Shown: positions 2,464-28,572 of the stretch, in pieces
Position numbering within the stretch: the stretch's first letter is position 1
Layout: each line of letters opens with the position of its first letter
Translations under genes and position numbers: made by a program
The notes under the pieces: generated by a model
Database searches by the model: none
Told to the model about the DNA's origin: nothing
The model's input: only the letters and a program-made list of their open reading frames with translations
Source: an uncultured Candidatus Saccharimonadales bacterium
GTDB lineage: Bacteria; Patescibacteriota; Saccharimonadia; UBA4664
DNA length: 32,511 nucleotides
Direction: 5' to 3'
NCBI GenBank assembly: GCA_964405545.1
Contig: CAYOOH010000002.1
Location: forward strand, 1 to 32,511

Positions 2464-4713
2464 TTAACGCCGGCGCAACTTGCGGTCAACCGAAGCCATC
2501 ACCCCCGCCAGCAACATGACAACCGCCGACAGCCCAAACAGCATGCTCATGTCCCGACCCTTAGCTTGAGCGGCCGCCCTAGCAGATACCGGCTGCTCAG
2601 CAGCTGCGGTCAGTACTCGGCCGCCAGAAGCAGCAACATCGGGAGTCGGTGCAGCCATCGCGCTCGCGGACACTCCGCTCGACGCGCCCATCGACGAAAC
2701 AGCCACAGGGTCTAGTCCCACTTCCGGCATAACGGCTGCCGCTATTACATGAGCCGCCAAAGGAGTGTTTCCGGCCTCCGAATCATGATTCAGGTCACCC
2801 GTCCAGCCTCCCAAGACGTTGATCACTAGCACCCCAAACCAGTGCTTAACATTCAAAACCGAGTTAACAATATTGGCCACGCTCGAAGTCGCCTGAGCGT
2901 TACCCGTTGATACATTACCAACATTGGTGTTCTGGCGAGCCACCGCGTCACCAGATTGAGCTTCGACATTGACATTATTAGTGATAGTGCCAACTGACTG
3001 AGCGTTAATATTCGTATTGGTCGAGTTGCTGACCGATGACGCATTATTGGAGTCCGCGCCAGTAGTACTCACCTGAGCATTGCCGGTTAGCAACGCCGAA
3101 CCAGTCGCTCCCCCACCCGGTACCGTCATAATCTTGCCAACCCAGTGACCCAAGACATTCACAATCACCAGCACTGCATTGTCACCAAAGATTGAGCTAT
3201 TAGCCAAATTGAACAGCCCCTGAGTGGTATTAGCGACACCCGTAGTAAGATTACCCGCCGTGGTATTAGCCTCAGCGCCAACCGATCCGCTAGTCGCTGA
3301 CGTTGTAATGTTGTTAGCGACTGCTGTAGTGGCGGTGTTATTGATGGTCGTCTGACCGCTGTTACTAACGCCTGCTTGATTAGTCGAGTCAGCACCAGTA
3401 CCGCTCACGCTAGCCGAACTGGGCGTAGCACTCGATGGCACGAGTCCGTTCAAGAAACCGTCCGGGAACAAGATGTCGCCGTTCAAGGTGCCAAAGATGT
3501 TCAAGATGCCAAAGAACGAGCTGCCCGAGCTAATAAACGAGCTGATGAGATTGACAATGTTAGCCTCAGCAAAAACGTTACCCGTAGCAACATTGCCGAC
3601 ATTGGTGTTCCGGCTAGCCGTCGCATCACCAGACTGAGCCGTTAGGTCGACATTATTCACAATATTACCCTGACTCTGAGCGTTTACGTTCAAATCGCTT
3701 GTATTGGTGACGGCCGCACCATTGGTAGAATCGGCCCCCGTCCCACTAACGCTAGCGCTACCGCCCAGCTGACCACCCCCGGTCTGGCTGCCTTCCGTCG
3801 GATTCAAAACAATGTCACCGGTGCAAGTCTGGTTAACCTGGCAAAGTGTTTGGGTAAAGAAATTCAAGTTACCGTGCGCCCATGACCACGCCGAAGCCAA
3901 CAAATTAAACAAGTTGGCAATCACGCTAACCGTACCGGTCGACAGATCACCGGCATGAGTGTTAGAATCAGCCGCTACGTTGCCCGAGCTTGCAGCACTC
4001 TGAAGTGTGTTAATGACATTGACCAAGTTAGTCAAGTCAACCCAGTTCTGCCCGCTGTTGGTAATTTGACCTTGGTTGGTCGATCCCGGTCCTGTCGATG
4101 ACACAATGATACTGTTTTGGCCCTCAAGCAACCCCAATGCCTGAGCCATCTGATAATCCTGCGACCCGACCGTTAAATCCCCCAAGGTCGTATGCACCAC
4201 GCTGGGAGCCGTAAGCATACCCTCTGGAGCTGGCTGGCCTACCGGAATAATCTTGTACCAACCGGTACGACCATCATAGTAGTACTTGGGAGACAAGTAG
4301 TAACCGGTAGTTTTATCACAGCTAAAAGACGCCTTGTCGGCCGCCACCCACTTACTGGTAGCCACATCATAAACCCAGTCAGGGATAGTCCCCCCGCACC
4401 CATCCGGACCTACGTCCGTCGACTTGTGTTTTGGCTTGGGGGTCGTCGATGGTGTCGGCTCCGGAGACGGACTAGCGCTCGGCTGGGGGCTAGGAGAAGG
4501 GGTCGGCGATACCTCGGGGCTGGGTGTTGGGCTTGCCTCAGGAGTCGGCGAGGGACTTGGACTAACGCTAGCCTCCGGGCTTGGCGATGGTGTTGATTCT
4601 GGCGAATCCGCCAAGCCAACACCAGCCCATCCAAGCTGGCCCATCAACAGAACACTTAATGTCAGAATTGAAACTAATCGTTGTTTTTTCACCGGTAACT
4701 GCCTCTCCCCCAT
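2464..4713 (-). CDS. Large secreted/anchored repeat protein (749 aa). It has a signal peptide, a Pro/Ser/Thr linker, a small Cys/Tyr/Trp-rich domain, four tandem units of about 113 aa and a C-terminal TM with a basic tail.
   Basis: Signal peptide KKQRLVSILTLSVLLMGQLGWAGVGLA, then a SPSPSPTPEASPTPSPEV linker, then GYYLSPKYYYDGRTGWYKI, which loosely resembles a cell-wall-binding repeat. Repeat heads are STGPGSTN (aa 206), SGTGADSTN (323), SGTGADSTN (437) and STTGADSNN (549). The C-terminus is MSMLFGLSAVVMLLAGVMASVDRKLRRR. Confidence 0.75.
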   Translation of the reverse strand: MGERQLPVKKQRLVSILTLSVLLMGQLGWAGVGLADSPESTPSPSPEASVSPSPSPTPEASPTPSPEVSPTPSPSPQPSASPSPEPTPSTTPKPKHKSTDVGPDGCGGTIPDWVYDVATSKWVAADKASFSCDKTTGYYLSPKYYYDGRTGWYKIIPVGQPAPEGMLTAPSVVHTTLGDLTVGSQDYQMAQALGLLEGQNSIIVSSTGPGSTNQGQITNSGQNWVDLTNLVNVINTLQSAASSGNVAADSNTHAGDLSTGTVSVIANLFNLLASAWSWAHGNLNFFTQTLCQVNQTCTGDIVLNPTEGSQTGGGQLGGSASVSGTGADSTNGAAVTNTSDLNVNAQSQGNIVNNVDLTAQSGDATASRNTNVGNVATGNVFAEANIVNLISSFISSGSSFFGILNIFGTLNGDILFPDGFLNGLVPSSATPSSASVSGTGADSTNQAGVSNSGQTTINNTATTAVANNITTSATSGSVGAEANTTAGNLTTGVANTTQGLFNLANSSIFGDNAVLVIVNVLGHWVGKIMTVPGGGATGSALLTGNAQVSTTGADSNNASSVSNSTNTNINAQSVGTITNNVNVEAQSGDAVARQNTNVGNVSTGNAQATSSVANIVNSVLNVKHWFGVLVINVLGGWTGDLNHDSEAGNTPLAAHVIAAAVMPEVGLDPVAVSSMGASSGVSASAMAAPTPDVAASGGRVLTAAAEQPVSARAAAQAKGRDMSMLFGLSAVVMLLAGVMASVDRKLRRR
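2794..4101 (-). repeat. Four tandem coding repeats of about 113 aa in the 749-aa protein (a polar module of about 65 aa plus a hydrophobic or aromatic segment of about 45 aa)
   Basis: Repeat heads at aa 206, 323, 437 and 549 give a period of 112-117 aa. Conserved positions are TG[AP][DG]S.N, [AQ].SG[DNS] and NT..G......G. The hydrophobic tails include LISSFISSGSSFFGILNIFG, VLVIVNVLGHWVGKI and WFGVLVINVLGGWTGD. Confidence 0.8.
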
Positions 4714-6612: not shown

Positions 6613-7586
6613 TACAATTCCTCCTTTCTAAAAGCATTGGGGACAAAAAACATCATTTTGGAAATTTCGTTTCTGACACCATCAAAAATCGAGCCCTGGC
6701 AGTGCGCTAGCGACAGTACAGAACTCGATAAAAAGGGTGTAGCAAAAGGAAAAACCATCTTAGTGGAACTCACGGTATCGCTTCGTGCAGCATGAGCAAA
6801 CCCAGATCTCCGCATCCATGCGCCGTAGCTAGAAACAAACAACTGAGTCGCCAGCAACAATAAAGCAACAGGAGCAAGCGCCAACTCGCCAAGCTCAGTT
6901 CCCTTGGTCAAAAAGCCAACCAAAACCGGCACCACGGTCGCCGCCAAGCGAGCTGTTAAACTACCAAAGAGACCCGTAGCCTTAGGCTTAACAGGGGCCT
7001 TAGTCGGCTCAGGTAGCGACGGCATTGTCGAAGCCAAGTCCTCAACAACCGGAGCAGTCCGGTTGGTAATCGTGGGTTTAACGATCAAAATTGCCGAGCG
7101 ATAACCGGCCGACCGCTGACCCGATATTGCAACCGGTACCGCAATAGTAACCGAGGCTTGAGCCAAAGCTGCCTTGCCCACCATCTCCGAACCCGGTTTA
7201 GCCGCAGCTAAATCCGCCCCACCGGCATCAGGCAACGTTTCTTGACTCGGCAATTGCTTATCCAACTCAGGTCCTATTGCCGAAGACTGAGGAACCACCT
7301 GATCCGAAGTCGCAACCGTAGAGGAGCTATCGCTCGATGCATCAGCCTGACCCTCCGTCTCCTTCGCCTGACCCACAATCGGAGCAGCTAAGCTTGAGCT
7401 AGAGGAGAGGATGGTCTGCTCATTCACTTGATCCGAAATAATCTGCATACCTACCGATTGAGTAGTCGTAGTCGCACTGCCATCAGCAGCAAGAGCACTA
7501 CCACTCAATACCAACGCCACACTGCCACCGGCAGCGAGCCCAACCACAAGCTGAACAGACGTAACTAACCTCATGCGACCCTTCAA
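6612..7586 (-). CDS. Secreted/membrane protein (about 320 aa), first gene of the surface operon, unknown function
   Basis: Signal peptide MRLVTSVQLVVGLAAGGSVALVLSGSALA, a Ser/Ala/Gln-rich middle region and C-terminal hydrophobic segments (LAATVVPVLVGFL, LALAPVALLLLATQLFV). The tracked start is TTG 7586. ATG 7574, preceded by GAAGGG, is the more likely start. Confidence 0.55.
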   Translation of the reverse strand: MKGRMRLVTSVQLVVGLAAGGSVALVLSGSALAADGSATTTTQSVGMQIISDQVNEQTILSSSSSLAAPIVGQAKETEGQADASSDSSSTVATSDQVVPQSSAIGPELDKQLPSQETLPDAGGADLAAAKPGSEMVGKAALAQASVTIAVPVAISGQRSAGYRSAILIVKPTITNRTAPVVEDLASTMPSLPEPTKAPVKPKATGLFGSLTARLAATVVPVLVGFLTKGTELGELALAPVALLLLATQLFVSSYGAWMRRSGFAHAARSDTVSSTKMVFPFATPFLSSSVLSLAHCQGSIFDGVRNEISKMMFFVPNAFRKEEL

Positions 7587-7765: not shown

Positions 7766-10294
7766 CTATGACTCAGCCCCAACCTCAATCTCGGCGATCT
7801 CAGCCTCACCCACTAGCGCAACCGACGCCACCTTGTCACCCTCAGTCATTCGCATCACCCGCACGCCTTGAGTTGCCCGACCAATCAGCGAGATGTCACT
7901 CAACGCCATCCGAATCACTTGCCCCTGAGTTGATACCACTACCACCTCGGCGCTAGCCTCCTCAATCGCTCGTACATCCACTGTCTTGCCGGTCTTAGTC
8001 GTCACCACACCCGCCTTAATTCCCACTCCGCCCCGAGCATGAGTCGCAAACTGATCTACCTTAGTCCGCTTGCCATACCCATTCTCCATTACCACCAACA
8101 TCTCCATACCCGCCCGCACCACATCCATGCCCACTACCACGTCCCCCGTCCGCAGGCGAATCCCCCGCACCCCTCGCGTCGCTCGGCCCATCGGCCGAAC
8201 CTCACTCTCCCGGAACCGAATCGCCTGAGCCAACGCTGTCGAGATAATAACCTCGTCCTTGCCGCTCGTCAGCTTCACCCATTTTAGCTCATCCCCAGCG
8301 TCGAGCTTAATGGCAATCAGGCCATTCGCTCGAACGTTGGCATAATCGCTCAAGGAAGTTTTCTTAACCGTTCCCAACTTTGTAGCCATAAACAAATACA
8401 AATGATCAGTCTTAGAGTCAAATGTCACAAGCGACGTCACCTTCTCCCCTTGACCCAACTGAAGTAAGTTAACCACTGCCTGGCCCTTGGCCGTCCGCGA
8501 TGCCGCCGGGATCTCATACACCTTCTGCCGAAACACCCGGCCCTTATTGGTAAAAAACAGCATAAAATCATGGTTCTGCGTCAGCACCAAATGCTCCACC
8601 ACATCTTCTTCCTTGGTGGTCATGCCCATAATACCTTTACCACCCCGGCCTTGGCTCTTGTAGGTATTAGCCGGAATACGCTTGATATAGTTGCCAGTCG
8701 TCAAAGTCACAATCACTTGCTCGTTCGGCACCAGCTCCTCTTCCGAGAATTTACCTAGTTCATTGCCGACAATCTGGGTCCGGCGAGCATCCCCGTACCG
8801 AGCCTTAAGCTCCTCCAGCTCTTCACGAATGACCCGCAGGATCTCACTCTCGCTGGCCAAAATCTTCTCCAGCTCCGCAATCAGTTTGAGAAGCTCGGCC
8901 AGCTCATCCTCGATTTTCTTGCGCTCAAGACCAGCCAGCGTCCGCAATTGCATAGCCAAAATAGCCCGAGCCTGCAATTCACTAAACGAGAACCGCTCCA
9001 TCAAATTAAGCCGAGCTTCGTCCGTGGTCTGCGACGCCCGAATTGTCTTAATAACTTCATCGATATGGTCAAGCGCAGTCTTAAGTCCCTCCAAAATATG
9101 CGCCCGCTCCTTAGCCTTGCGCAGCTCAAACTCGATCCGCCGTCGCACCACGATCTGCCGATGCTGCAAATACTCGCGCAGCATCATCTCAAGACTCAGA
9201 ACACGCGGCTGACGGCCCTTATCTACCAATGCCAGCATGTTGACATGGAAGGCTGTCTGAAGCGGCGTCATCTTAAACAACTGATTTAAGACCTTGTTCG
9301 GATACGAGTCCCGCTTAAGCTCGATAACAATCCGCACCCCTCCACTTCGACTCGAGCTCTCATCCCGCAAATCATGAATCCCTACAATCCGCTTGTCGTG
9401 AACCAGCTCGGCAATCTTCTCAACCAGCGTCGCTTTATTGACCGCATACGGAATCTCCGTTACCACAATCCGCGATACGCCCTTTTTATCCTCCTCGATC
9501 TCTGCCACCGCCCGCACGACAATGCTGCCCTTACCCGTTCCATAAGCTTGGCGGATCGAGTCGGTCCCAAAAATCACACCCCCTGTTGGAAAATCTGGCC
9601 CTTTAATGTGCTTCATGAGGTCAGTCAGCGTCGCCTCGGGATTATCAATCAACTCCACAACGCCGTCCACGAGCTCAGTCAAATTGTGCGGCGGAATATT
9701 GGTCGCCATACCCACCGCGATTCCCACCTGACCGTTCAACAGCAGGTTAGGTAACTTAGCCGGCAGCACCACCGGCTCCCGCTTAGTTCCGTCATAGTTA
9801 GGCCGAAAATCTACCGTCTCTTTTTCGATATCATTGAGCAGTTCCTCGGCAATCGTCTGCATTCGAGCTTCCGTATAACGCATAGCCGCCGGCGGGTCGC
9901 CATCCAGCGAACCAAAGTTCCCCTGGCCGTCCACCAATGGGTAACGCATCGAAAAGTCCTGAGCTAGCCGCGCCATCGCATCATAAATCGCCGCGTCGCC
10001 GTGCGGGTGATAGTTACCCATCACATCTCCCACCACGCTCGCACTCTTGCGGTACTTGGCGCTATGACGCAAACCCTGCGAATTCATAACATGGAGAATC
10101 CGACGATGAACCGGCTTTAGGCCATCTCGAGCATCCGGCAGCGCCCGCGACACAATCACGCTCATGGCGTAAGCCAAATAGCTGGTCTCCATTTCGTACT
10201 CAAGTTTCTGCAGCCGCACCGTCCCGATCTCAGTCCGAAGTTCTTCGGGCTCCTCCGCCGGCTGTTCGATAATGTCTAGTGATTGATCGTCCAT
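7766..10294 (-). CDS. gyrA: DNA gyrase subunit A
   Basis: 842 aa. Motifs are [25 protein letters not shown], the catalytic-Tyr region AAMRYTEAR, and the GyrA-box QGRGGKG in the C-terminal domain, which favours gyrase over ParC. The gene lies 15 nt downstream of gyrB. Confidence 0.97.
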
Positions 10295-14627: not shown

Positions 14628-17600
14628 CTACTCCCCAATAATTACATTACCTCGCTCATCTACAAACACCTCGCCCGGAGCCAACTTCTTGGGCTGCTCT
14701 ATTCTTGGCGCATCTACATTCGCCGCCGGCCCCTCGCTCGTCGGCATAATCAGCGTACCCGTCAAAGCCCCCGCCTCCTCCTGAGCTTCCGTGGGACTAT
14801 TATGAATCTCCTCCTGGGTGCTCTCAATCTGCTCAGCTGGCTTATCGGGTAATCGCTTATGCCGGACATGCGTCTCAACCGGTTTCATGTCTTCGACCGG
14901 AGCAGAATCGGAAACCACCGCCGCCACTCCCTCCGCGGCCACCGGCCCCAAATTGGACAAACGATCGCGCTTGGCCTGCGCTACATCAGAAACAGCTAAC
15001 GATTCGGCAGGCGGTAGGCCACCGTCCTCCTGCACCGGTAGCGGCACCTCGGCCAAAGCCGGCGCCAAAACCCCGGCCGAACCCGCCGGCTTAGGCGCCG
15101 CTATGGCCCCCACAGGCGCAGAGGTCGACTCACGCACAGTCGCCGGTAAGGGTGACAAAACCGGCTCACGTGCGGTCGCCGGCGCCCACGTAGCCACCGG
15201 TGCCGACGCCGGGCCGGCCAACACCCCACCCTGCGGTTCCAAAACTGCCACCGGCCTAGACACGTCGACCGGCCTCGCCGCCTCAACCCCCGGCTGCGCC
15301 AAGCCGGCCGGAGCCATGGGGACGGGGGCAAGCGGTAGCGTTGGCATTGGCGGTGGTGGTGCAGGCTGAGGAACCGAAACCGGCTCCAGCCTTGACCGAG
15401 AAGGAGGCATTACCGGTGCTACCGGCTGCGGCAAGACTGACGCCCGACCATTCGACGGCAACAACGACATGCTCAATAAGTCATCAATCTGTCGCTCCGT
15501 GTCTTCGACCGGACCAGATGCACCCCCCAAAGGCACAGCCGACACGCTTATCCCCGATGCCCCCCTGTCATTCTCAGTCGTCGACCCACCGGCAATCGGA
15601 GCCGTCGCGCCCCGATCAGGCTCCATTCCAGACTGCACTGACGCCGCCCCCTGCTGCTCAACAGACCTACCCACCGGAGGAGCTGCCAAAACCGCCGGCT
15701 CGACCGCGGCCAAACCAACCGCCGGCACTGCTCCACCCAACACATCAATACCAGCGTAAGGATCACCAGGTAACGGCTGAGCAACGCCCCCACCCATACC
15801 CATAGCACCACCACCCACAGCGCCGCCATTCACCGCTGGCTCACTCGTCGGCCTTGGCGCCGGCATACCCAACACATCGATCCCCGCGTAAGGATCCCCT
15901 GGCAGCGGTGCCGCCCCCGCAACCATCGCGCTCCCATCGGCACCAGACTCACCCCCGGCTGGCACTCCAACTCCGGCCCCACTCCCGCGACTGCCGCTCA
16001 TAGCCGAATCAACCGCAACCGGAGCCTGCCGCGGCGGTCTGCCCCCGGTAATATCCCGAAAAGACAGCGTACCCGGTGCCGGAGGAACAGCCGCAGCCGC
16101 AACAGCCGGCGCCACCCCCGCCGTCGCCGCTCCGGGCATTGCAGCCGCCCCAGGCATCGGCCCGACCATCGCTCCCGGCCCGACGGCCGCCCCAGGCATC
16201 GGCCCCACCGCCCGCGCCATGCTAGGGGGCAAATCCACCGGCGGCGCCCCGATCGGCGGCGGCATCATCGCCATCTGAGGCAAGCTCGCCGCCGAACCCG
16301 CAACACTACCACTCCCCAAAGCCGTATCCGCCCCAGGCGCCGCATAACCTCCCGCCGCCCCAGACACAGGTACCGCCGGCCAAGTTCCCGCCACCGCCCC
16401 CACCCCCGGACCAACCTGAGTGCTAGGTGCAGCCGCAACCCCACCGCCCGCCATTCCTGCACCCCCAGGGGCCATCCCCCCCACCGAAGCAAAATCTGCG
16501 CCCGGCACACCCGAGGCACCCGCTGCGACAACCGCGCCATTCGCCGTATTACCCCAGCTTGCGCCCCCAGCAGCCGGCGGCACCATTGCCGCAGTGGCTG
16601 GCGCTGTACCACTAGCCCCTACCACACCCGCTCCGTTAACCGCACCACTACCACCAACTCCAGTCGCCCCTACCGCCGAGCCGCCATTCATCGCCGACCC
16701 ACTCATCCCCCCGCTGCCGCCCAACGCCGTCGCCCTCGCTCCAGCCGGCGCCATACCACCAGACGCCACGTCACCAGTTCCACTCACATTCGGCGCCCCC
16801 ACGCCGCTCCCGGCCCCACTAGCCCCCGGCCCTCCCGCCGGCCCGCTCGCCCCTCCTGCTCCCGGCCCACTCACGCTTGACCCCGCGCCACCAGCCGCTC
16901 CCGGTGCCACCGGCGTCGATAGCTTTGGCGCTGGCGTTCCCGGCGCTCGACCCGTAAATCGCTCCACAATATCGGCTTCCACCACCGACTTCGCCCGGCC
17001 AAACTTAGCAGCGCTCAACTGCTTAATCGCTACCCCCAGCTCCGCATTGGCACCCGCAATCGGCGCCGAATCTTTAATCGTAAACGGCTGCGACGGCAGC
17101 CCTCCAATCATCAGTCGCATAGCTGCATTAAAGTTAGGCAAATTCATCAAATCCGACGCATCAAACACGGGCGCAAACTGCTTTACCATAAACTCGGCAT
17201 CCTCCGGCCCCATCCGGTGCGCTACAATCGTCCCAATATTGCCAAACACCGCATCCCGAATCTGCTGGCTCAACTGACCAATAAACTGGTTGGCTACAAT
17301 CAAGTTCAGTCGGTATTTCCGGGCCTCGCTCAAAATACTGGCAAAACTATCCGTCGAAAAATTCTGAAACTCATCCACATACAAACAAAAATCCGCCCGT
17401 TGGTCCTCCGGCACCTCCGCCCGGCTCATCGCTGCCGCCTGGAACTTGATCACAAAAATCATACCCAACAGCTGCGAGTTCAGCTCGCCAATCCGGCCCT
17501 TACTCAAGTTCACGATCAAAATCTTCTTCTGATCCATAATGTCGCGAATATTAAAAGCCGACTTAGTCTGGCCGATAATATTGCGCATCATCTCGTTGTT

Positions 17601-19382
17601 CTGGAACGCCCCAAACTTACTCACAAACCAGCCCAGCATCTCGCTCTTGTGGTAATCGCTCGTCTGGCCCATCTCTTTGGTCCAAAAATCAATCACCGTC
17701 GGATCCTTCAAGTACTTAAACTTCTTCTTTAAGTACTCCGTATCGGTAAACACTTTCGGAATCTCAATAAACGTCGCCCCATTCGGATCGCTCATCAACG
17801 TCAGTGCCGCATTCCGATACCAATGCTCATACCGCGGCCCAATAATGCCCGTATGCCCCGGGTCATACAGCTTGTACAGCATATTAATCGTCTCTTGAAC
17901 CAAGAAATCCTTCTGCGCCGGATCCGTAAACTCAAACAAGTTCAGCCCGAGCGGGTACTCCATGTCCGACGGATTAAAGTACACCACATCCTCCGCCCGC
18001 TCCTTTGGCACCATACTCAAAAGCTTCTCGGCGCTATCCCCATGCGGATCAATAAAAGCAAACCCATTGCCGGCTCTCATATCCTGGACTACCAAATTCT
18101 CCAGCATCGTCGACTTACCCGTACCCGTCTGGCCCAAAATATAGGTATGTCGCCGCCGATCCTCAGGACTTAGCCGGATCTCTTTTTGCACCCCCCGGAA
18201 CTCATTATGACCAAACAATAACCCCGTCGCCGGCAACTGGACCGGCCCGTCCACCTGCTTGCTCTGCAGCCGCTCTACACTGGCACTGGGCGTAAACTGC
18301 GAATCCGGCAAATGAAACAACGTCGCCAGCTCCACGCTATTTAAGACATTACTCTTGAGCTCCGGCGGAAAAAACCGAAAGATAAAAGCCGTCACCAGCC
18401 CTTGCACGTCCAGCGCCGGCAAGAACTTAAACCCATTCACACCCGGCGCCTCAAACAGCGCAAAAGCCGTCGCAATATCCCGCAACAGCTGCTGACTCCG
18501 CACCACCGACCCCGTCGATACCACCACCCGAACCAACACCTCAAACCCCGGATGCTTTGTCTTCTCCTCGATCGCCTCCACCTCGGCCAGCTCCAGATTA
18601 GACACCTCCTTGCCACCTGTCCGCGCCTGCTCCTCCTGTCGCCGCTGCTCCGGCGACTTAACAGCCGCCTTAACCAAATCGCCAGCCGTAAACGCCAAAC
18701 TCTCATGCCGCCCCTTGCGCTTAGAATCAGCCACCTTAACCGACCGCTTCGTCCATTTCGGGTCGGCTGGCCTCAGCATAATCTGGACCGCGGCCCCATC
18801 CTGCTTATCCAACGCCGCAATCGTCGTTAACAGCGCCTCCATCGGATCGCGCTCCAGCTTAGCGTAGGTCGCAATCGGGTAGGCACTCTCGGCCCGCAGC
18901 ACCATCTCGCCCCCCAACGTGGCCGCCAGTCGGCCTTCCTGGTTAAAGATATTGTGGTCCTCCACCTCCTCCAGGCGCGCCCCCGGATAAGCCGTCACCA
19001 CCGCCTTCTTCACGACGCTCACCAGCGCCACCGGTACCGCCACAAAGAAATGCACCACGCCTTCAATTGCAATCAACTCCAACGCCACATGCCGCTGGCC
19101 ATAAAAATTACTCTTAAAACCCTCAACAGCCGTACCGGCCAACAGATTGTACAGCACCTCAGCCTGCGACGTCTTCTCGCGCATCACCTCCCGGATATCA
19201 CGCGACCCGGCGGCCGTATCCGAGCTCGGCGGGGGCAAATGGATGAGCACCGGCACCATCTTGAGTCCCCGCTCAATTGCCTTGGCCCGCCGCAGCTTCC
19301 GCCGATACGTCACAAAAGCCACCACCCCCAACCCGCCGGCTAGGCCAAAAAACACTACAAAAACCAGTATAATACCGCTCAC
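14628..19382 (-). CDS. Giant (1584 aa) membrane-anchored VirD4/TraD/TraG-like (type IV coupling-protein-like) P-loop ATPase fused to a Gly/Ala/Pro-rich low-complexity C-terminal region of about 750 aa
   Basis: N-terminal TM IILVFVVFFGLAGGLGVVAFV followed by YRRKLRRAK. Walker A YILGQTGTGKST is at aa 417-425 (nt 18108-18134). Walker B FCLYVDEFQNF is at nt 17358-17384. LNLIVANQFIGQLSQQIRDAVFGNIGTIVAHRMG resembles the Q..QL region of coupling proteins. From about aa 811 onward the sequence is GAGGASGPAGGPGASGAGSG-type. The start is GTG. Confidence 0.8.
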   Translation of the reverse strand: MSGIILVFVVFFGLAGGLGVVAFVTYRRKLRRAKAIERGLKMVPVLIHLPPPSSDTAAGSRDIREVMREKTSQAEVLYNLLAGTAVEGFKSNFYGQRHVALELIAIEGVVHFFVAVPVALVSVVKKAVVTAYPGARLEEVEDHNIFNQEGRLAATLGGEMVLRAESAYPIATYAKLERDPMEALLTTIAALDKQDGAAVQIMLRPADPKWTKRSVKVADSKRKGRHESLAFTAGDLVKAAVKSPEQRRQEEQARTGGKEVSNLELAEVEAIEEKTKHPGFEVLVRVVVSTGSVVRSQQLLRDIATAFALFEAPGVNGFKFLPALDVQGLVTAFIFRFFPPELKSNVLNSVELATLFHLPDSQFTPSASVERLQSKQVDGPVQLPATGLLFGHNEFRGVQKEIRLSPEDRRRHTYILGQTGTGKSTMLENLVVQDMRAGNGFAFIDPHGDSAEKLLSMVPKERAEDVVYFNPSDMEYPLGLNLFEFTDPAQKDFLVQETINMLYKLYDPGHTGIIGPRYEHWYRNAALTLMSDPNGATFIEIPKVFTDTEYLKKKFKYLKDPTVIDFWTKEMGQTSDYHKSEMLGWFVSKFGAFQNNEMMRNIIGQTKSAFNIRDIMDQKKILIVNLSKGRIGELNSQLLGMIFVIKFQAAAMSRAEVPEDQRADFCLYVDEFQNFSTDSFASILSEARKYRLNLIVANQFIGQLSQQIRDAVFGNIGTIVAHRMGPEDAEFMVKQFAPVFDASDLMNLPNFNAAMRLMIGGLPSQPFTIKDSAPIAGANAELGVAIKQLSAAKFGRAKSVVEADIVERFTGRAPGTPAPKLSTPVAPGAAGGAGSSVSGPGAGGASGPAGGPGASGAGSGVGAPNVSGTGDVASGGMAPAGARATALGGSGGMSGSAMNGGSAVGATGVGGSGAVNGAGVVGASGTAPATAAMVPPAAGGASWGNTANGAVVAAGASGVPGADFASVGGMAPGGAGMAGGGVAAAPSTQVGPGVGAVAGTWPAVPVSGAAGGYAAPGADTALGSGSVAGSAASLPQMAMMPPPIGAPPVDLPPSMARAVGPMPGAAVGPGAMVGPMPGAAAMPGAATAGVAPAVAAAAVPPAPGTLSFRDITGGRPPRQAPVAVDSAMSGSRGSGAGVGVPAGGESGADGSAMVAGAAPLPGDPYAGIDVLGMPAPRPTSEPAVNGGAVGGGAMGMGGGVAQPLPGDPYAGIDVLGGAVPAVGLAAVEPAVLAAPPVGRSVEQQGAASVQSGMEPDRGATAPIAGGSTTENDRGASGISVSAVPLGGASGPVEDTERQIDDLLSMSLLPSNGRASVLPQPVAPVMPPSRSRLEPVSVPQPAPPPPMPTLPLAPVPMAPAGLAQPGVEAARPVDVSRPVAVLEPQGGVLAGPASAPVATWAPATAREPVLSPLPATVRESTSAPVGAIAAPKPAGSAGVLAPALAEVPLPVQEDGGLPPAESLAVSDVAQAKRDRLSNLGPVAAEGVAAVVSDSAPVEDMKPVETHVRHKRLPDKPAEQIESTQEEIHNSPTEAQEEAGALTGTLIMPTSEGPAANVDAPRIEQPKKLAPGEVFVDERGNVIIGE
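14703..16952 (-). other. Compositionally biased (Gly/Ala/Pro/Val/Ser) region of the giant ATPase gene, predicted to be intrinsically disordered
   Basis: Read directly from the translation, about aa 811-1560. The many long antisense and alternate-frame ORFs in the track here (for example 16420..17277 +) are by-products of this bias. Confidence 0.8.
15736..15908 (-). repeat. Duplicated 14-aa motif PLPGDPYAGIDVLG inside the ATPase low-complexity tail
   Basis: The copies are encoded at 15736-15776 and 15868-15908, 132 nt (44 aa) apart. The peptide is identical in both, and the DNA differs at several synonymous positions. Confidence 0.85.
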
Positions 19383-22980: not shown

Positions 22981-25281
22981 CTAACGCCGTTTCGCCCCTA
23001 GTCGCCGCTCAAGCAGGCCAAAAACCCGCGCCTCGAGCTCACTCGCTTCCACCTCGGTCGGGGTCCGCTCCGGATGCGTCACCTCCAAGCGCAAAGTCAG
23101 CCCCTTATGGCCTTCCGGCAAATCGTCTCCATAATAATCACCCACAAACCCTGCCGTCTGCGGCGCCAGCACGTCCACGACCATCTGCCAGCTTACCGAC
23201 ACCGGCACCACCACCGTCAAATCGCGCTTAATACTGGGGAATCGCTCCACCCCACCAAATCGCCGCGTCCCACTTCGGTCCAGTAGGGTCTGCATATCAA
23301 CCTCCACATAAGCCGCCTCCCCCGCCACCTTCAGCCTATCAAGTAGTTCAGGCCTCAACTGGCCAATCCGGCCCACCGCCATCCCCTCTAGCTTCACGAC
23401 ACCACCCCGTCCCGGAGCATACTCCGCCAAATCCGCCGGCTCCACCACCAACTCAACATTCAACTCGCGTCCCACCGCATCAAGCACCCCCTTAACCGCC
23501 CCGTACGCTCGCTCTGGCCGCCGCATCATCACCCCCAATCGCAATGGCTCGTTCGGCTGCTCACCGGCCTCCCGCCGCACAAACACCCCCGACAGTTCAT
23601 AAAAACCCAATACCTTTGCATACAGCCGATTCCGGGCCAATACCGCCACATGACTTGGCAGCAATGAACTACGCAAATAAGCCTGTTCTGCGGACAGCGG
23701 ATTCTTAACCTTCAAATGGTCCTTTAGCACCAGCCCCAGCTCCTCCAGTTGCTCCGCCGCCACAAACGAGTATGTCATAACCTCAAACAGCCCAGCTCCG
23801 TACAGCAAATCCCGCACCATCCGCCGTTTGGCTCGCTGCCGGTCAAACGCCACCACCCGCGGCCGCCACGCCGGAATCGTCGCCGGCACCTTGTCATAGC
23901 CTACTACGCGCACAACCTCTTCTATCAAATCCTCAGCCAATCGAACATCAGGCCGCCACCACGGCACCTCCGGTACCACAATCGTCACCTCATCACCCGT
24001 CACCTCAAATCCCAATCGACTCAAGGCCTCCACAGCCTGCTTACGGCTCATTCCAAACCCCACCAGCCGTACCAGCCGCTCCATCGCCAGCTCAATCGAT
24101 ACCCGCATCGGCTTCGCATTCTGCTGATCCGTCAAACCCACCAGCCGCCCGCCGGCCGTCATAGCCAACAATTCCAAGGCTCGACCCATGGCCACCGCCG
24201 GCAGTTGGACGGGCAGCCCCCGCTCAAACCGGGCGCTCGCCTCCGTCCGAATCCCGTGTCGCTTAGCCATCTTCCGCACAACAGCCGACTCAAACACCGC
24301 CGCCTCAAGCAGAATCTCTTTCGTCTCTGGGCCAACCTCAGTCGCCGCCCCTCCCATCACACCAGCCAGCCCAATCGGTCCTGTCTGGTCTGCAACTACC
24401 AAGTCCTCAGGCGTTAGTTTACGTTCTACCCCATCGAGCGTCACCAATCGTTCATCCATCCGAGCCATCCGCACCTCAACCGGCAACCTCACCTTGGCTG
24501 CGTCATAGGCGTGCATCGGCTGACCCTGCTCCAGCATCACATAATTAGTTACGTCCACTACCGGAGATACCGACCGCATCCCAGCCGCCTTCAATCGCGC
24601 CGCCATCACTGGGCTCACTGCCCCAGACTCAACCCCCACGCGAGCCAGCATAAACCGCGCCGCCGCACTCCCCTCGACCACCTCCGGCCCTTCACCGCTA
24701 GCTGATGCCGGATCAACCTGCCGCTTAAGCTTAGAACCCGTCATAGCTCCCACCTCGCGTGCCAAACCGACCATGCTAAGAACATCAAAACGATTAGCCG
24801 GGGTCTTTAGGTCAATGATTGTCTCTGCCGGATAAAGGTCGCACAACGCACTCCCCACCTCTACGCCATCGTCCAGTTCCAAAATGCCATCATGCTCAGA
24901 GCCCAAACCCAATTCACGCTCACTACACAGCATTCCCTCGCTCACTTCACCGCGCAACTTAGCCTTCTCGATCCGGTCTCCAGATGGCAGGACCGTCCCT
25001 ATATGGGCAACAGCCACTTTTAAGCCTTCACGAACATTAGGCGCCCCACACACAATATTCAAATCACCATCACCTATCGTAACGGACACTAATTTTAGTC
25101 GGTCTGCTCCCGGATGCTGAACAACTTTATTAACCAGGCCAACAACAATCTTTTTATCAAGTTCTTTAGAATAAATAACTTGTTCAATCTCCAATCCAGC
25201 CTTCTCTACTGTACGCTCCATCTCCTCATCGGATATTGTGCGACCTAAAAGCTCTCGGACCCAAGATGATAGTAACTTCAT
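22981..25281 (-). CDS. pheT: Phenylalanine--tRNA ligase beta subunit
   Basis: N-terminal tRNA-binding OB domain VVGLVNKVVQHPGADRLKLVSVTIGDG, followed by regions resembling B3/4, B5 and a C-terminal FDX-ACB domain. Start MKLLSSWVRELL (ATG 25281) overlaps the pheS stop (TAATG). The tracked ORF extends to 25317. Confidence 0.95.
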   Translation of the reverse strand: MKLLSSWVRELLGRTISDEEMERTVEKAGLEIEQVIYSKELDKKIVVGLVNKVVQHPGADRLKLVSVTIGDGDLNIVCGAPNVREGLKVAVAHIGTVLPSGDRIEKAKLRGEVSEGMLCSERELGLGSEHDGILELDDGVEVGSALCDLYPAETIIDLKTPANRFDVLSMVGLAREVGAMTGSKLKRQVDPASASGEGPEVVEGSAAARFMLARVGVESGAVSPVMAARLKAAGMRSVSPVVDVTNYVMLEQGQPMHAYDAAKVRLPVEVRMARMDERLVTLDGVERKLTPEDLVVADQTGPIGLAGVMGGAATEVGPETKEILLEAAVFESAVVRKMAKRHGIRTEASARFERGLPVQLPAVAMGRALELLAMTAGGRLVGLTDQQNAKPMRVSIELAMERLVRLVGFGMSRKQAVEALSRLGFEVTGDEVTIVVPEVPWWRPDVRLAEDLIEEVVRVVGYDKVPATIPAWRPRVVAFDRQRAKRRMVRDLLYGAGLFEVMTYSFVAAEQLEELGLVLKDHLKVKNPLSAEQAYLRSSLLPSHVAVLARNRLYAKVLGFYELSGVFVRREAGEQPNEPLRLGVMMRRPERAYGAVKGVLDAVGRELNVELVVEPADLAEYAPGRGGVVKLEGMAVGRIGQLRPELLDRLKVAGEAAYVEVDMQTLLDRSGTRRFGGVERFPSIKRDLTVVVPVSVSWQMVVDVLAPQTAGFVGDYYGDDLPEGHKGLTLRLEVTHPERTPTEVEASELEARVFGLLERRLGAKRR

Positions 25282-26306
25282 TAAAACCTCTCCAAAAACT
25301 TCATGTTCGGTCGCCAAAACTCGCGGACGTCTTCAACCCCATATTTAATAGTTGCGATTCGCTCCGGCCCAAATCCAAATGCAAATCCACTATAAATTGT
25401 CGGATCAATTCCGACGTTTTTAAGTACCTGGGGGTGAATCATCCCTGCTCCTCCCAGTTCTAGCCAACCCGTTGCGCCACACAGCCTGCAGTCAAGGTCC
25501 CCCACCCGACCAGTACCGCTACAAATGACACATGTTGCATCCATCTCAACACTCGGCTCCGTATAGGGGAAATAATTGGCCCGCAACCGCAGCCCTGCTC
25601 CTTCTCCCAATACACCTTTCAGCATCGCCTCGAGCGTACCTTTCAGGTCAGCCAAACTGATCCCCTCGTCCACCACCAGTCCCTCAATCTGATAAAAATT
25701 CCATGAATGCCGCGCGTCTTCGTCTTCGTTTCGGTAAACCTTACCCGGCGCAATAATCCGAATGGGCAAACTATCCCCATGCTCCATCATGTGCCGAATC
25801 TGGACCGACGAGGTGTGCGTCCGCGGTAGATGCGCCTCCTCCAAGTAGAACGTATCCTGCATATCCCGAGCCGGATGGTCCTTGCCCACCAACAACGCGT
25901 CAAAGTTATACCACTCCGTCTCTACCTCCGGTCCCTCGGCCACCTGATAGCCCATCTGCCAAAACAAATCAACCAGCTCATCCAATACCACACTCACCGG
26001 ATGACGATGCCCCACCCCAACCGGCAAACCCGGCGCCGTCACATCCAATCCCCCCGCTAGCCGATCCGCCACCTCGGCCCTCCGCAGCTCTTGCTCTCGA
26101 GCCGACAGCAAATTCTCCGCCCATACGCGCAGTGCATTAGCCTCCTGGCCCGCTAAACCGCGCTCGGCGGCTGGCAGCGTCCCAATCGCCTTCAGCTGAT
26201 CGGTAATTATCCCCTTGCGACCCAAATACGCCACCCTTAGACGCTCAAGATCGGACAGCGATACCGCTCCCTTTAGCTCCTTGCCTAATTCTTCTCTTAT
26301 GGCCAT
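25281..26306 (-). CDS. pheS: Phenylalanine--tRNA ligase alpha subunit
   Basis: 341 aa. Class II core motifs YFPYTEPSVEMD, GAGMIHPQVL and FAFGFGPERIA. Confidence 0.96.
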   Translation of the reverse strand: MAIREELGKELKGAVSLSDLERLRVAYLGRKGIITDQLKAIGTLPAAERGLAGQEANALRVWAENLLSAREQELRRAEVADRLAGGLDVTAPGLPVGVGHRHPVSVVLDELVDLFWQMGYQVAEGPEVETEWYNFDALLVGKDHPARDMQDTFYLEEAHLPRTHTSSVQIRHMMEHGDSLPIRIIAPGKVYRNEDEDARHSWNFYQIEGLVVDEGISLADLKGTLEAMLKGVLGEGAGLRLRANYFPYTEPSVEMDATCVICSGTGRVGDLDCRLCGATGWLELGGAGMIHPQVLKNVGIDPTIYSGFAFGFGPERIATIKYGVEDVREFWRPNMKFLERF

Positions 26307-26758
26307 CGAAACCTCACATATACTTCAACGATTCCCAACAACAACGCCAGCAAAGCTGCGTCCAGCCAACCAAGCTGCCCCAGCGAGCTCAGGGCCAGCA
26401 CGCCCGTCACCCAACCACTCACCAACAGGCCTTGCCGCCAAGAATACCGCAAACGAGCCACACTTGCTACATGGACATGCAAAAACGTCTTAGCCGTATA
26501 CAACCCAAGCGCAAAAACCGCCGCCAAGCCGCCAAACAGCATAACAAACCAAACCGTTACTCCTGCCGGCCCAATCGCCGCCGGGTTAGTAAAAAGCATA
26601 CTAAGCACGAGACCCACGACCGCCACCAGCGAGGCCACAATCAGCATACTCAGCCAGCCCAACACAGTCACCGCCAACCCACACATTACTAGCAGTAGTA
26701 TCTCATTCCGCCGCGCTGCAAGCAAAACAAAATCCGCTCTCGTGACTAGGCGCTTCAC
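26297..26758 (-). CDS. Small integral membrane protein (153 aa, about 4 TM), first gene of the pheST operon
   Basis: GTG start. Hydrophobic segments ILLLVMCGLAVTVLGWLSMLIVASLVAVVGLVL, VWFVMLFGGLAAVFALGL, LLVSGWVTGVLAL and AALLALLLGIV. Its 3' end overlaps the pheS start by 10 nt. Confidence 0.6.
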   Translation of the reverse strand: MKRLVTRADFVLLAARRNEILLLVMCGLAVTVLGWLSMLIVASLVAVVGLVLSMLFTNPAAIGPAGVTVWFVMLFGGLAAVFALGLYTAKTFLHVHVASVARLRYSWRQGLLVSGWVTGVLALSSLGQLGWLDAALLALLLGIVEVYVRFRWP

Positions 26759-26803
26759 AGCGTGCTGTCATGAGAGCGGATTTAACAATAAATCCAGAGT
26801 TAC

Positions 26804-26850
26804 GGGGCGATGCCGAAGCATCCTTGTGTGTAATTGACGCCGGTCGCCCC
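26804..26850 (-). terminator. Terminator-like or attenuator-like hairpin at the 3' end of the structured RNA region, upstream of the pheST operon
   Basis: GGGGCGA (26850..26844) pairs with UCGCCCC (26810..26804) and encloses UGC-UUCG-GCA. It is followed by GUAACUCUGGAUUUAUUGUU, which is only moderately U-rich. Confidence 0.4.
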
Positions 26851-27237
26851 GTAGGAATCCCTACCCAAGGTGCGCATGGTGTCTTTTTACCTTTCGGACG
26901 GTAAATGATAGTGCGTTTTTATTTTGAGTAAAGATTTTGTGTTGGTGGACGAGTCGACCGCAAGGTTAAGATTTTTGCTTCGAACAACGTCCGATTTACT
27001 TCCTGTCACCCGTATGGGTAACCGGAAGCACTCGGCTATAATCGGTTGATTATAACCGCGTACCTCCGGTCTCCCGACAAAACTCGTGGCGCCATCTTGG
27101 ATTCAGCCAAGATTTGAGTTTATGGTGAGCAGTAGGACGGACCCGGGTTAGAAATAAGGGGGATACTTCTAACCGGGATCTATCCTACCGCCGACCCGAC
27201 CTAACAAGAAGTGGAGACTGAGCTTTCAACGAACAGA

Positions 27238-27273
27238 GGACTTTTGGACATCGGACTTTCCGACCAGGGACTT
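27238..27273 (-). repeat. Three AAGUCC motifs (GGACTT on the plus strand) at exact 15-nt spacing near the 5' end of the structured RNA
   Basis: Plus-strand GGACTT occurs at 27238, 27253 and 27268. A flanking imperfect direct repeat is GUUCGUUG(G/AAA)GCUCA(A)GUC at minus-sense offsets about 50 nt apart. Confidence 0.7.
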
Positions 27274-27301
27274 GAGCCAACGAACCAGTGGAACTGTAAC
27301 T

Positions 27302-27330
27302 AACTTAGCACAAGCATTATTGATTGTCAA
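27302..27330 (-). promoter_or_regulatory. Sigma-70-type promoter of the structured RNA
   Basis: Minus strand TTGACA (27330..27325), a 17-nt spacer, then an extended -10 TGCTAAGTT (27310..27302). The predicted TSS is about 27295-27297. Confidence 0.5.
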
Positions 27331-27579
27331 TACTCTTATGCTAATCGCCTATCGTGTATCAAAATATTGCTTACAAAAGCCAAAAAATTACCCATAACCG
27401 TCTCTTATCTAGGTATCGTATCACGACCCTTGTTGAATTTAAAACAACGTTTATGCACAAATATTTTACTACTTTTTTAAGCTACTTTACCTACTAACAA
27501 CCCATGCTCCCCCATCTGTCAAAGATGAAGCAGCCACAAAAACCCAATCCCACCAGCCAAACCAACCCGTCCCCGCCGC

Positions 27580-28572
27580 TTACAAGAGACCGAGTACTCG
27601 TTTTACCTCAGCCAACTTGGCGTTAGCCAATTCCGACGCACGCTTTCGCCCCCGCTCCAGTTCCTCATCTATCCGTCTGTTCCCGGGCTGCATCAAATCC
27701 ACATACCGCTCCTTGAGCGGCCTCAGACTTTCCTCGACAAGCTCAGCCAAGTCTCCCTTAAATTCACCGTAGCCCCTTCCAGCATAAGCCTGTTCAAGTT
27801 CCGGCACCGATTTACCTCCCAAGACCGACATAATCACGAGCAGGTTGGTTAGTGCCGGCTTATCGGCTCCGCTAGCCACACTACTACCCGAATCAGTTAC
27901 CGCTCGCATCACCTTTTTCTGGGTCAATTTTGGATCCTCACCCAGCAAAATATTACCCGAATCATCCAAGTCACTCTTACTCATCTTACGAGTCGGATCC
28001 TGCAAGTTCATGATCCGCGCCCCTTCCGTCTGAACCGTGGCAGTCGGTACCCGAAACACCGGACCGTGCAGGTTGTTAAACCGAGTCGCAATATCCCGCG
28101 TTAACTCAACGTGTTGCTTCTGGTCCTCGCCCACTGGAACCTCATCGGCATCATAGAGCAAAATATCGGCCGCCATAAGGACCGGATAGTCATACAACCC
28201 GACCAGCTGACCGTCGGCTCCAGCCTTCTGCGACTTATCCTTAAACTGAGTCATCCGATTAAGCTCCCCCACTGTCGTATAGTTGTTCAAAATCCATGTC
28301 AGCTCCGAATGGGCCGGCACCTGCGATTGCATATAGATATAAGACTGACGGTGATCAACGCCACTCGCCAGCAACCAGGCCACCGCAGCCCGACTATCCT
28401 GACGCAAGGCCTCCGGCTGGGGCCGCGACGTCAAGGCATGCAGGTTTGGCACAAAGAAAAAATGCTCGCAACTTGTGTCGGCGCTCATCTGGCCCCACCG
28501 TTTCATCGCTCCCAGATAATTTCCCAACGTCAACTGACCAGTTGGCTTTACGCCCGATAATACTCGCTTCAC
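27580..28572 (-). CDS. trpS: Tryptophan--tRNA ligase
   Basis: 330 aa. N-terminal SGVKPTGQLTLGNYLGA (HIGH-region equivalent), KMSKS, and a typical TrpRS length. The GTG start is preceded by AAAGGGTGG. Confidence 0.95.
   Translation of the reverse strand: MKRVLSGVKPTGQLTLGNYLGAMKRWGQMSADTSCEHFFFVPNLHALTSRPQPEALRQDSRAAVAWLLASGVDHRQSYIYMQSQVPAHSELTWILNNYTTVGELNRMTQFKDKSQKAGADGQLVGLYDYPVLMAADILLYDADEVPVGEDQKQHVELTRDIATRFNNLHGPVFRVPTATVQTEGARIMNLQDPTRKMSKSDLDDSGNILLGEDPKLTQKKVMRAVTDSGSSVASGADKPALTNLLVIMSVLGGKSVPELEQAYAGRGYGEFKGDLAELVEESLRPLKERYVDLMQPGNRRIDEELERGRKRASELANAKLAEVKRVLGLL

Follow-up and report, generated by a model that had tools for sequence, protein, structure and literature searches.

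A 32,511-nt stretch of DNA from an uncultured Candidatus Saccharimonadales bacterium (assembly GCA_964405545.1, contig CAYOOH010000002.1; "the window" hereafter) contains, with high confidence, a stand-alone gene for a structured non-coding RNA (ncRNA) of ~570 nt, at ~26724–27295 of the minus strand, whose family is absent from Rfam 15. The gene is located between trpS and an operon composed of a small open reading frame (ORF), pheS, and pheT. The transcript is predicted to be ~567 nt long in the window, and the members of the family range between ~410 and ~690 nt. About 28 distinct sequences of the RNA are found in Saccharimonadia genomes and soil metagenomes. An earlier examination of the letters of this DNA without database searches (the sequence-only reading) left two possibilities for this region, either RNase P RNA in a very divergent form or a large structured RNA not described before. 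The relatives, their covariation, and the absence of any Rfam match agree with the second. On the available evidence it represents a class of large structured bacterial RNA that has not been described, because no Rfam 15 family, no paper, and no match in phage genomes or IMG/VR was found; the gene and the structure are well supported, while the function is not. Taken as a whole, a stand-alone structured RNA, tentatively proposed to act in trans, is the probable explanation of the locus.

The RNA gene has its own promoter and terminator

The promoter, a strong sigma-70-type TTGACA-17-TGcTAAGTT on the minus strand, is found as the sequence-only reading described it. A promoter accompanies the RNA in all of the distinct sequences; it is matched by pattern in 22 of 24 relatives, and is also present in L112, L115, L117, and L119 (related loci are given here by L numbers). 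The consensus of the family promoter is (GCATAAGAGTA)TTGACA-N11-GCTTGTGCTAAGTTA. The predicted start of the RNA is ~27295 (the A of ACAG / AGUUC), and predicted transcripts of the family nearly always start with AGUUCG.

The 3' end is set by a putative intrinsic terminator, which had been overlooked before. A hairpin and a T-run are found directly after the conserved 3' tail in nearly all relatives. The terminator stems of the members are mutually unrelated (AAAUCCGCUCUC, AAAAACCGCUC, GCCGCUCCCC, and AGCCCUUC). At the tip of the stem, a module YGYC-GNRA-GRCR is seen in ~17 of 27 members (CGCUGUGAAGCG at 26741–26770 of the window, CGCCGUGAGGCG in another member), and its closing pairs covary. 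Because this apical module is conserved and its closing pairs covary, the terminator hairpin may have a structural role in the RNA as well, for example through a contact of the GNRA tetraloop.

In every relative examined, the sequence TGnNATAAT follows the terminator and precedes the small ORF. The conservation of this extended -10 element (26697–26705 in the window) indicates that the small-ORF-pheST operon has its own promoter. Linkage to the neighbouring genes is also broken in some lineages. Genes are inserted between trpS and the RNA in L001, L089, L091, L095, L106, and L112, and in L091/L107 and L119/L120 the RNA is parted from the small ORF by inserted genes on the opposite strand. The RNA is conserved in all these loci. 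As it is kept despite insertions on either side, the RNA is neither the 3' untranslated region of trpS nor an obligatory leader of pheST.

The gap 26759–27579 contains no ORF of 60 aa or longer on either strand, as had been noticed. It is in fact wider than these coordinates, because relatives place the start of the downstream small ORF at GTG 26671, which makes it 124 aa rather than 153 aa. A pseudogene or a gene for a small protein was examined and rejected: the ten short ORFs in the gap show no Pfam match at E ≤ 1, and the one ORF compared, an AUG-started frame through the hairpin domain H8 described below, is open in the window and L001 and loses its frame in L081 (alignment read by eye).

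The RNA structure is conserved and covaries

The minimum free energy of the minus-strand RNA 26759–27310 is -205 kcal/mol, against -154 ± 7 kcal/mol for shuffled sequences (z = -7.3; 0 of 100 shuffles as low). RNAalifold, applied to a MAFFT alignment of 21 sequences covering the whole RNA (A2), yields 85 predicted pairs, of which 39 show compensatory changes. Among the 83 pairs counted in A2, 95.0% of cells are paired versus 87.8 ± 0.4% after shuffling (0 of 500 reach the observed value). Double changes are seen in 39 of the 83 pairs, versus 20.3 ± 2.7 after shuffling and 8–19 when partners are slid by 1–3 columns. The covariation score is 0.337, versus 0.194 for the shuffled and 0.05–0.10 for the slid controls. 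A covariance model of the first two hairpins, H1 and H2 (model R1), was used to align 24 sequences (A5); here 97.0% of cells are paired, double changes occur in 20 of 39 pairs, and the covariation score is 0.426 versus 0.204. Conservation and covariation of the spacer in relatives, for which the sequence-only reading had asked, are seen as a conserved structure with double changes above both the shuffled and the slid controls.

The strand that it chose is also upheld. Read from the other strand, many of the conserved G-U pairs would turn into A-C mismatches, and covariance-model scores are 62–126 bits in sense and 20–50 bits in antisense orientation. All six helices that it drew sit where it placed them. 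Five of them (H1, H2, H3, H4, and H8) are recovered in the consensus fold; H5 is not. Its last helix, a domain with an inner C(UUCG)G hairpin, is retained in part: the outer domain is conserved, whereas the UUCG hairpin is seen in the window, L103, and L109 only. The conserved pairing in its place is GCGUC/GAUGC, which covaries.

Anatomy of the RNA

The RNA is a chain of seven to eight local stem-loops (H1–H6 and H8; Table 1) with no helix closing the 5' and 3' ends. A consistent duplex between the 5' region and the 3' tail was sought with RNAduplex in 21 sequences, and none was found. Neither were long-range helices or pseudoknots that would make a compact core; the consensus fold consists of local hairpins and one medium-range helix.

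Table 1. Features of the RNA gene and its surroundings (window coordinates; sequences of the RNA are given as transcribed).
Feature	Coordinates	Strand	Basis
Conserved upstream block TTTGTGCATAAACGTTGTTTTnAATnCAACAAGG	27425–27466	-	BLAST and alignment with relatives
RNA promoter: -35 TTGACA (27325–27330), 17-nt spacer, extended -10 TG-C-TAAGTT (27302–27310)	27302–27330	-	Sequence
Variable 5' insert with repeated (A)AGUYC units, including GGAAAGUCC	27238–27292	-	Lacking from L001 and most relatives
Conserved single-stranded 5' motif GUUCGUUGAAAGYUYAGUYCUC (GUUCGUUGAAAGCUCAGUCUCC; start motif AGUUCGUUGAAAG)	27213–27234	-	Alignment A2, predicted transcripts
CU-rich, G-poor linker	27193–27212	-	Alignment, predicted transcripts
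H1, hairpin of ~29 bp	27128–27192	-	Consensus fold, covariation, motif scan
H2, outer 5-bp AACUC/GAGUU, inner 8-bp hairpin, conserved loop GGYCCAAAC	27081–27121	-	Covariation
H3, hairpin of ~19 bp, ACCGGAGG.../...CUUCCGGU enclosing GCGGUUAUAAUC/GAUUAUAGCCG, with conserved U-G pairs	27021–27070	-	Covariation
H4, short hairpin CCC-AUAC-GGG (core 27010–27017)	27005–27022	-	Consensus fold
Conserved single-stranded GGAAGUAAAUC (consensus GGGAAGUAAUC)	26993–27003	-	Alignment A2
H5, three-part hairpin with A-rich loop, variable in length and sequence	26947–26992	-	Single-sequence folds
H6, 13-bp helix AAUCUUUACUCAA/UUGGGUAGGGAUU around an A-rich loop and inner hairpins	26856–26936	-	Covariation, single-sequence folds
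H8 domain, outer UACGGGGCGA/UCGCCCCGUA, inner CGUC/GAUG, conserved internal loop CAAUUACACAC	26801–26853	-	Alignment A6
Conserved 3' tail AACUCUGSAAUUAUU (CCCCGUAACUCUGCAAUUAUU)	26784–26800	-	Alignment
Intrinsic terminator (predicted), stem AAAUCCGCUCUC/GAGAGCGGAUUU, apical CGCUGUGAAGCG (GNRA loop), then UUGUUUU	26724–26783	-	Stem and T-run in relatives
Extended -10 promoter of the small-ORF-pheST operon, TG-A-GATACT, outside the RNA	26697–26705	-	TGnNATAAT in relatives
Membrane protein of 124 aa, four predicted helices, end overlapping the start of pheS	26297–26671	-	Alignment of relatives, AlphaFold2

The conserved 5' motif starts at the predicted +1 in most relatives. In the window it is preceded by the variable insert, and inserts of differing copy number are also present in L085 (~7300–7430), L086 (~7300–7400), L091 (~8180–8260), L095, and L115 (~2420–2470). 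The number of GUYC units is between 1 and 9, depending on the lineage, and the stretch is G-poor and unstructured. The (A)AGUYC insert looks as if the 5'-terminal AGUUCG motif had been expanded. The units could be a platform for protein binding or noise of replication slippage. TRF reports no tandem repeats within the RNA; the AAGUCC units are shorter and less regular than it can pick up. Downstream of the motif, CCUCC or CUCCU is frequent in the linker of relatives.

H1 is composed of a covarying lower stem and an almost invariant upper part, the stem GGUUAGARG/UUUCUAACC and the apical loop UAUCCCCCUUAU (core 27157–27163). The sequence A(U/C)CCCCCUUA of the loop is present in 24 of 24 members. 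The loop is also kept in L115, L117, and L119, which were not selected by loop sequence. In H2, double changes are seen at every outer pair and at seven of the eight inner pairs; in H3, at 9 of 19 pairs. H5 cannot be aligned. The same hairpin is nevertheless predicted in the single-sequence folds of most members with differing stems (GGACG/CGUCC, GGAUU/AAUCC, and GAGCU/AGCUC), and it is lost in the short members L085, L099, and L117.

H6 was overlooked by the sequence-only reading. It is predicted in every single-sequence fold, and four of its eight core pairs show double changes. The sequence that H6 encloses is deleted in L085, L091, and L117, where the helix closes on a loop of 3–4 nt. H8 was aligned in 25 sequences (A6), where it is 96% paired. 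One of its pairs is changed from G-C to C-G in five sequences, and another from U-A to C-G in six. The core sequences CGGGSCGAC and CGSCCCG are each found in 24 of 24 members. The H8 core and the upper stem with the apical loop of H1 (GGUUAGARG-UAUCCCCCUUAU-UUUCUAACC) are the most striking invariants of the RNA.

Distribution of the RNA family

Relatives were collected via TrpS: L001 (UBA6017), and L081–L093 through look-ups of the encoding contigs. The TrpS search of genome contigs returned mostly distant bacteria, with L001 as the sole useful locus. The RNA is detected by BLASTN in all eight distinct lineages derived from TrpS. A 20-mer of the most conserved hairpin led to 18 more metagenome contigs. 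The RNA also precedes the most divergent small-ORF homologues sampled (L112, L115, and L117), and is found in the clearly more distant lineage L119/L120, where a profile is needed to detect the small ORF. The family has been seen in at least two sub-lineages of Saccharimonadia, from soil and rhizosphere, and so far in Saccharimonadia only. Model R1 gives no match over 28 other trpS loci of the Candidate Phyla Radiation (CPR) and Saccharibacteria; the RNA could sit elsewhere in those genomes. A mobile or phage origin was rejected, as neither IMG/VR (searched with the 20-mer) nor phage genomes (searched with blastn) contain a match.

Searches against known RNA families

Rfam 15 consists of 4227 families. 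At the gathering score, a search of the whole window yields no hit. With E ≤ 10 and permissive filters, 26600–27700 yields only noise (eukaryotic snoRNA, miRNA, and viral elements of 15–22 bits). Thirteen related loci searched at the gathering score contain only tRNAs elsewhere, and six short relatives searched at E ≤ 10 match no known family. Across the window, the 13 loci, and the six short relatives, there is thus no Rfam 15 match to RNase P, tmRNA, T-box, 6S, SRP, OLE, ROOL, GOLLD, or raiA. The models of HEARO and of group I/II introns are not matched either. No description of this RNA was found in the full-text literature.

Some of these families were also examined by other means. A tmRNA was rejected: ARAGORN finds no tRNA or tmRNA in the window, the T-arm motif is present in 0 of 24 members, and the ends of the RNA are unpaired. 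6S RNA and Ms1 were rejected, because the 5' and 3' halves are unpaired and Rfam gives no match. The domain IV motif of SRP is seen in 0 of 24 members.

Possible function and alternative explanations

The H1 loop, CCCCCUUAU, matches CCUCCUUUC, the canonical bacterial 16S anti-Shine-Dalgarno (anti-SD) tail, at seven of nine positions; the comparison is with the canonical tail alone. The SD sequences of the window genes are of the AAGGAG type. C-rich loops that occlude SD sequences are working parts of RNAIII-type regulators. In OLE RNA, an anti-SD mimic is bound by the ribosomal protein bS21 (PMC12054373).

The strong promoter, the terminator of its own, the heavy conservation of the loops, and the housekeeping location point to an abundant RNA acting in trans. 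It can be tentatively proposed that this RNA acts in trans as a translation-related regulatory RNA or ribonucleoprotein (RNP) by means of the anti-SD-like loop. The H1 apical loop UAUCCCCCUUAU would be the business end, helped by the CU-rich linker. Loop and linker would engage either ribosome-binding sites rich in G or a protein that is associated with the ribosome and recognises the anti-SD. The invariant loops GGYCCAAAC, CAAUUACACAC, and GGGAAGUAAUC might be contacts with protein or within the tertiary structure, and the neighbouring four-helix membrane protein might be a partner.

Several observations weigh against this proposal. The H1 loop has C in place of U, and therefore a mismatch would be formed with the A of GGAGG. 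In the 32-kb window, the complement of the loop is found only in the gene of the RNA itself. The linker is poorly conserved, and its window copy is atypical. So many invariant nucleotides, located in stems as well as loops, would be expected of an RNP or a ribozyme rather than of a simple base-pairing small RNA, and invariance of sequence suggests protein recognition or tertiary structure over antisense pairing. A specific pairing of the H1 loop with the ribosome-binding site of the small ORF, AGGGGAG, was considered and rejected, since that sequence is present only in a minority of relatives.

One alternative is a membrane RNP resembling OLE: the 124-aa four-helix protein would bind the RNA and anchor it at the membrane, the two forming one device. 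Nearly all loci with both have the small ORF immediately after the RNA and in the same orientation, and the RNA accompanies even the most divergent small ORFs (L112, L115, and L117) and the distant L119. The protein contains four predicted transmembrane helices (pLDDT 89) and invariant basic residues in RLRYSWRQG and YVRFRWP. The link between ole and OapA rested on the same sort of adjacency and co-occurrence (PMC11332333). However, the RNA and the protein gene are kept apart by a terminator and a separate promoter, and in L091/L107 and L119/L120 also by opposite-strand genes. Translational coupling ties the protein to pheS rather than to the RNA. The protein shows no similarity to CNNM or OapA (Pfam at E ≤ 1; best Foldseek E = 1.4), and its family, with 220 representatives, is wider than the loci compared for the RNA. 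Synteny within a narrow clade is weak evidence as well. On balance such a device is unlikely. A more specific form of it, a CPR-specific counterpart of OLE in which a membrane-tethered RNA of ~0.5 kb captures ribosomal components or mRNAs with its anti-SD-like loop, should be held to be at least as unlikely.

The second alternative is a catalytic RNA, either a new ribozyme or another component of an RNP enzyme. Large, highly conserved bacterial RNAs are generally suspected to be catalytic or parts of RNP enzymes. The size of 410–690 nt, the many invariant nucleotides both in loops and within helices (H1 upper stem and H8), the conservation across sub-lineages, and the housekeeping locus with a strong promoter are all consistent with catalysis. 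The fold counts against it: its local hairpins resemble beads on a string, with no long-range helices or pseudoknots found, and neither a substrate nor a chemistry is apparent. We therefore consider a catalytic role rather improbable.

The third is a cis-acting leader, that is, a giant attenuator like a riboswitch or a T-box, which would sense tRNA-Phe, Phe, or another signal and control read-through into small-ORF-pheST. In other bacteria, pheST is under T-box or attenuation control. Here, in most lineages (L099 among them), the RNA immediately precedes small-ORF-pheS-pheT in the same orientation, and an intrinsic terminator is placed 50–100 nt ahead of the operon. Against a leader stand the TGnNATAAT that all relatives keep between terminator and ORF, and the two lineages in which the RNA is conserved though opposite-strand genes split it from the operon. 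Besides, no conserved antiterminator is possible because the terminator stems share no sequence. A T-box itself was rejected, because there is no match to RF00230, the T-box 14-mer is found in 0 of 24 members at up to two mismatches, and the candidate UGG of the bulge varies among members (CUGG or CCGG). A leader is accordingly a very doubtful explanation.

The last is RNase P RNA, the best named guess of the sequence-only reading, and it is extremely improbable: neither RF00010 nor RF00011 is matched at E ≤ 10 in the window or its relatives, no consistent P1-type duplex of the 5' and 3' ends is found, and the consensus fold has no P4-type long-range pairing. The size of the RNA is compatible, and CPR RNase P RNAs are so divergent that they are missed at default thresholds, some rnpB genes being found only down to 5 bits (PMC8172020). 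The motif GGAAAGUCC at 27253–27261, which had been taken as the RNase P CR-I core, is however located in a 53-nt variable insert absent from most relatives, and GGAAAGTCC is exact in one of 24 members, the window copy only. CR-IV and CR-V (ACAGAAnnCGGCUUA) are seen in 0 of 24 members at up to two mismatches, and model R1 finds nothing near trpS in other CPR lineages. The doubts about rnpB that accompanied the guess were correct.

The trans-acting regulatory RNA or RNP described above is the functional reading that we prefer, at the tentative strength given there.

The neighbouring 124-aa membrane protein

In all lineages sampled, the distant L119 too, the small ORF adjoins the RNA. Its product is modelled by AlphaFold2 as four helices (pLDDT 89, pTM 0.77). 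The invariant motifs are NPxxIGPxGVTxWF, RLRYSWRQG, and EVYVRFRWP, and invariant Arg/Lys/His residues are present in the loop RLRYSWRQG and the tail YVRFRWP. No match is found in Pfam (E ≤ 1) or NCBIfam. The best Foldseek hit against PDB is at E = 1.4, and none is CorB-like. On these negative results, homology to OapA/CNNM was rejected. A profile search places the protein in an orphan family of 220 representatives at 50% identity. The translational coupling of a membrane protein to the phenylalanyl-tRNA synthetase (PheRS) is odd. Adjacency and co-occurrence are what linked OLE RNA to OapA (PMC11332333), and by analogy the 124-aa protein may be a partner of the RNA.

The surrounding locus

The RNA gene is flanked by trpS (27580–28572, minus strand) on one side, and by pheS (25281–26306) and pheT (22981–25317) beyond the small ORF on the other. 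Genes for RmuC, a class A penicillin-binding protein, and an L,D-transpeptidase are near the locus, and gyrA and gyrB are farther off. The closest named TrpS relatives are from metagenome-assembled genomes of Candidatus Saccharimonadia / Patescibacteria (72–81% identity), which marks the window as a CPR contig of Saccharibacteria type, and contigs related to the window carry JGI identifiers of soil and rhizosphere samples.

The upstream part of the gap was described as an AT-rich spacer by the sequence-only reading. Its G+C content is indeed low, 40–42% versus 51–61% in the flanking genes. It is not a plain spacer, however, since conserved elements are located inside. The block TTTGTGCATAAACGTTGTTTTnAATnCAACAAGG, 35 nt long, is kept in 18 relatives at ~130–170 nt upstream of the RNA start. 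It contains TGTGC+ATAAAC, which is like the extended -10 of the clade, and a GTTG..CAAC dyad. About 55 nt upstream of the block is a promoter-like site, TTGACA-N16-18-TAnnnT (27513–27518), and a small variable palindrome is seen ~45 nt before the main -35 (~27368–27382). These elements could represent a second promoter, a small transcript, or operator sites.

The public gene call of trpS (P0001, 27580–28572) is 302 aa long. Because the full ORF and all relatives are 330 aa, the deposited start is probably too far downstream. Among related loci, L086 (9538–12312), L091 (11247–end), and L117 (4554–end) contain a pheT of 911–959 aa with an NlpC/P60 peptidase match inside PheRS beta. The match is weak in L086 and L117, and is not marked weak in L091. 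This is an unusual domain insertion for an aminoacyl-tRNA synthetase. The PheT of the window, 778 aa, is without it.

Elsewhere in the window, on the minus strand, there are an ORF of 1584 aa (14628–19382) and an ORF of 749 aa (2464–4713), the latter with a sole weak match to a repetitive protein. They may encode large surface proteins typical of epibiotic Saccharibacteria.

Implications for annotation and for Saccharimonadia

Gene callers put protein ORFs on the RNA. P0139, a JGI gene call, is a version of the small ORF extended at the N-terminus to 197 aa through H8 ("GRDTYGATGVNYT"), and a spurious 58-aa ORF is called over the 3' domain of the RNA in L112 (2786–2962). Such spurious calls hide the RNA in annotations. 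In L119, a putative ORF of 142 aa on the minus strand (1727–2155) has no Pfam match.

Bacterial ncRNAs of more than ~400 nt whose structure is as conserved as this are rare, and nearly all known ones are ribozymes or cores of important RNPs: rRNA, RNase P, tmRNA, group I/II introns, OLE, ROOL, and GOLLD. Saccharimonadia have genomes of ~1 Mb with very few regulators, and to our knowledge almost no lineage-specific RNAs have been described in CPR bacteria. Despite their small genomes, Saccharimonadia retain an RNA gene of ~0.5 kb with a near-consensus promoter at a housekeeping locus. The RNA brings with it a testable candidate for a partner, the 124-aa membrane protein, and a testable element, the invariant C-rich anti-SD-like loop.

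Comparison with known systems

T-box leaders (RF00230) can be found upstream of pheST on the same strand and end in an intrinsic terminator, as the RNA reported here does. They differ in having the T-box sequence, the specifier-loop architecture, and the antiterminator. The RNA here is about twice their size, its downstream operon has its own promoter, and the linkage to pheST is broken in two lineages.

RNase P RNA (RF00010/RF00011) is of similar size and is found in a housekeeping neighbourhood. One GGAAAGUCC is present in the window copy alone. The helices of RNase P RNA are nested and long-range, whereas those here are local, with no P1, no P4, and no conserved CR-I, CR-IV, or CR-V.

RNAIII of Staphylococcus aureus and other small RNAs with C-rich loops (RsaE/RoxS) resemble this RNA in having a C-rich apical loop that could pair with G-rich ribosome-binding sites. 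RNAIII is, in addition, encoded by a stand-alone gene of ~0.5 kb with its own promoter and terminator, and is a chain of local hairpins. In contrast to RNAIII-type regulators, only one C-rich loop is strictly conserved here, and conservation outside any seed is far greater. The RNA here contains no conserved embedded peptide gene and shows no homology to RNAIII.

OLE RNA with OapA in Bacillota (RF01071) is similar in the layout of the neighbouring gene. Both RNAs are ~0.5–0.6 kb, multi-stem, and rich in invariant nucleotides, and both genes adjoin a co-occurring gene for a small four-helix membrane protein. An anti-SD-like element is present in both; that of OLE is P6, a paired SD/anti-SD mimic bound by bS21, while here it is an unpaired apical loop (CCCCC). 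The two RNAs show no homology in sequence or structure (no match to RF01071 at E ≤ 10). OapA is CNNM-like with DxxxD, whereas the protein here is 124 aa without a CNNM-like fold or DxxxD. A terminator and a promoter are located between the two genes here, and the host is a CPR epibiont lineage rather than Bacillota. The likeness to OLE/OapA is a resemblance of layout, not membership. If a counterpart of OLE were nevertheless encoded here, it would mean membrane-linked global control of translation in ultra-small epibiotic Saccharimonadia, and the principle of OLE would have been invented independently, with an unrelated RNA and an unrelated protein.

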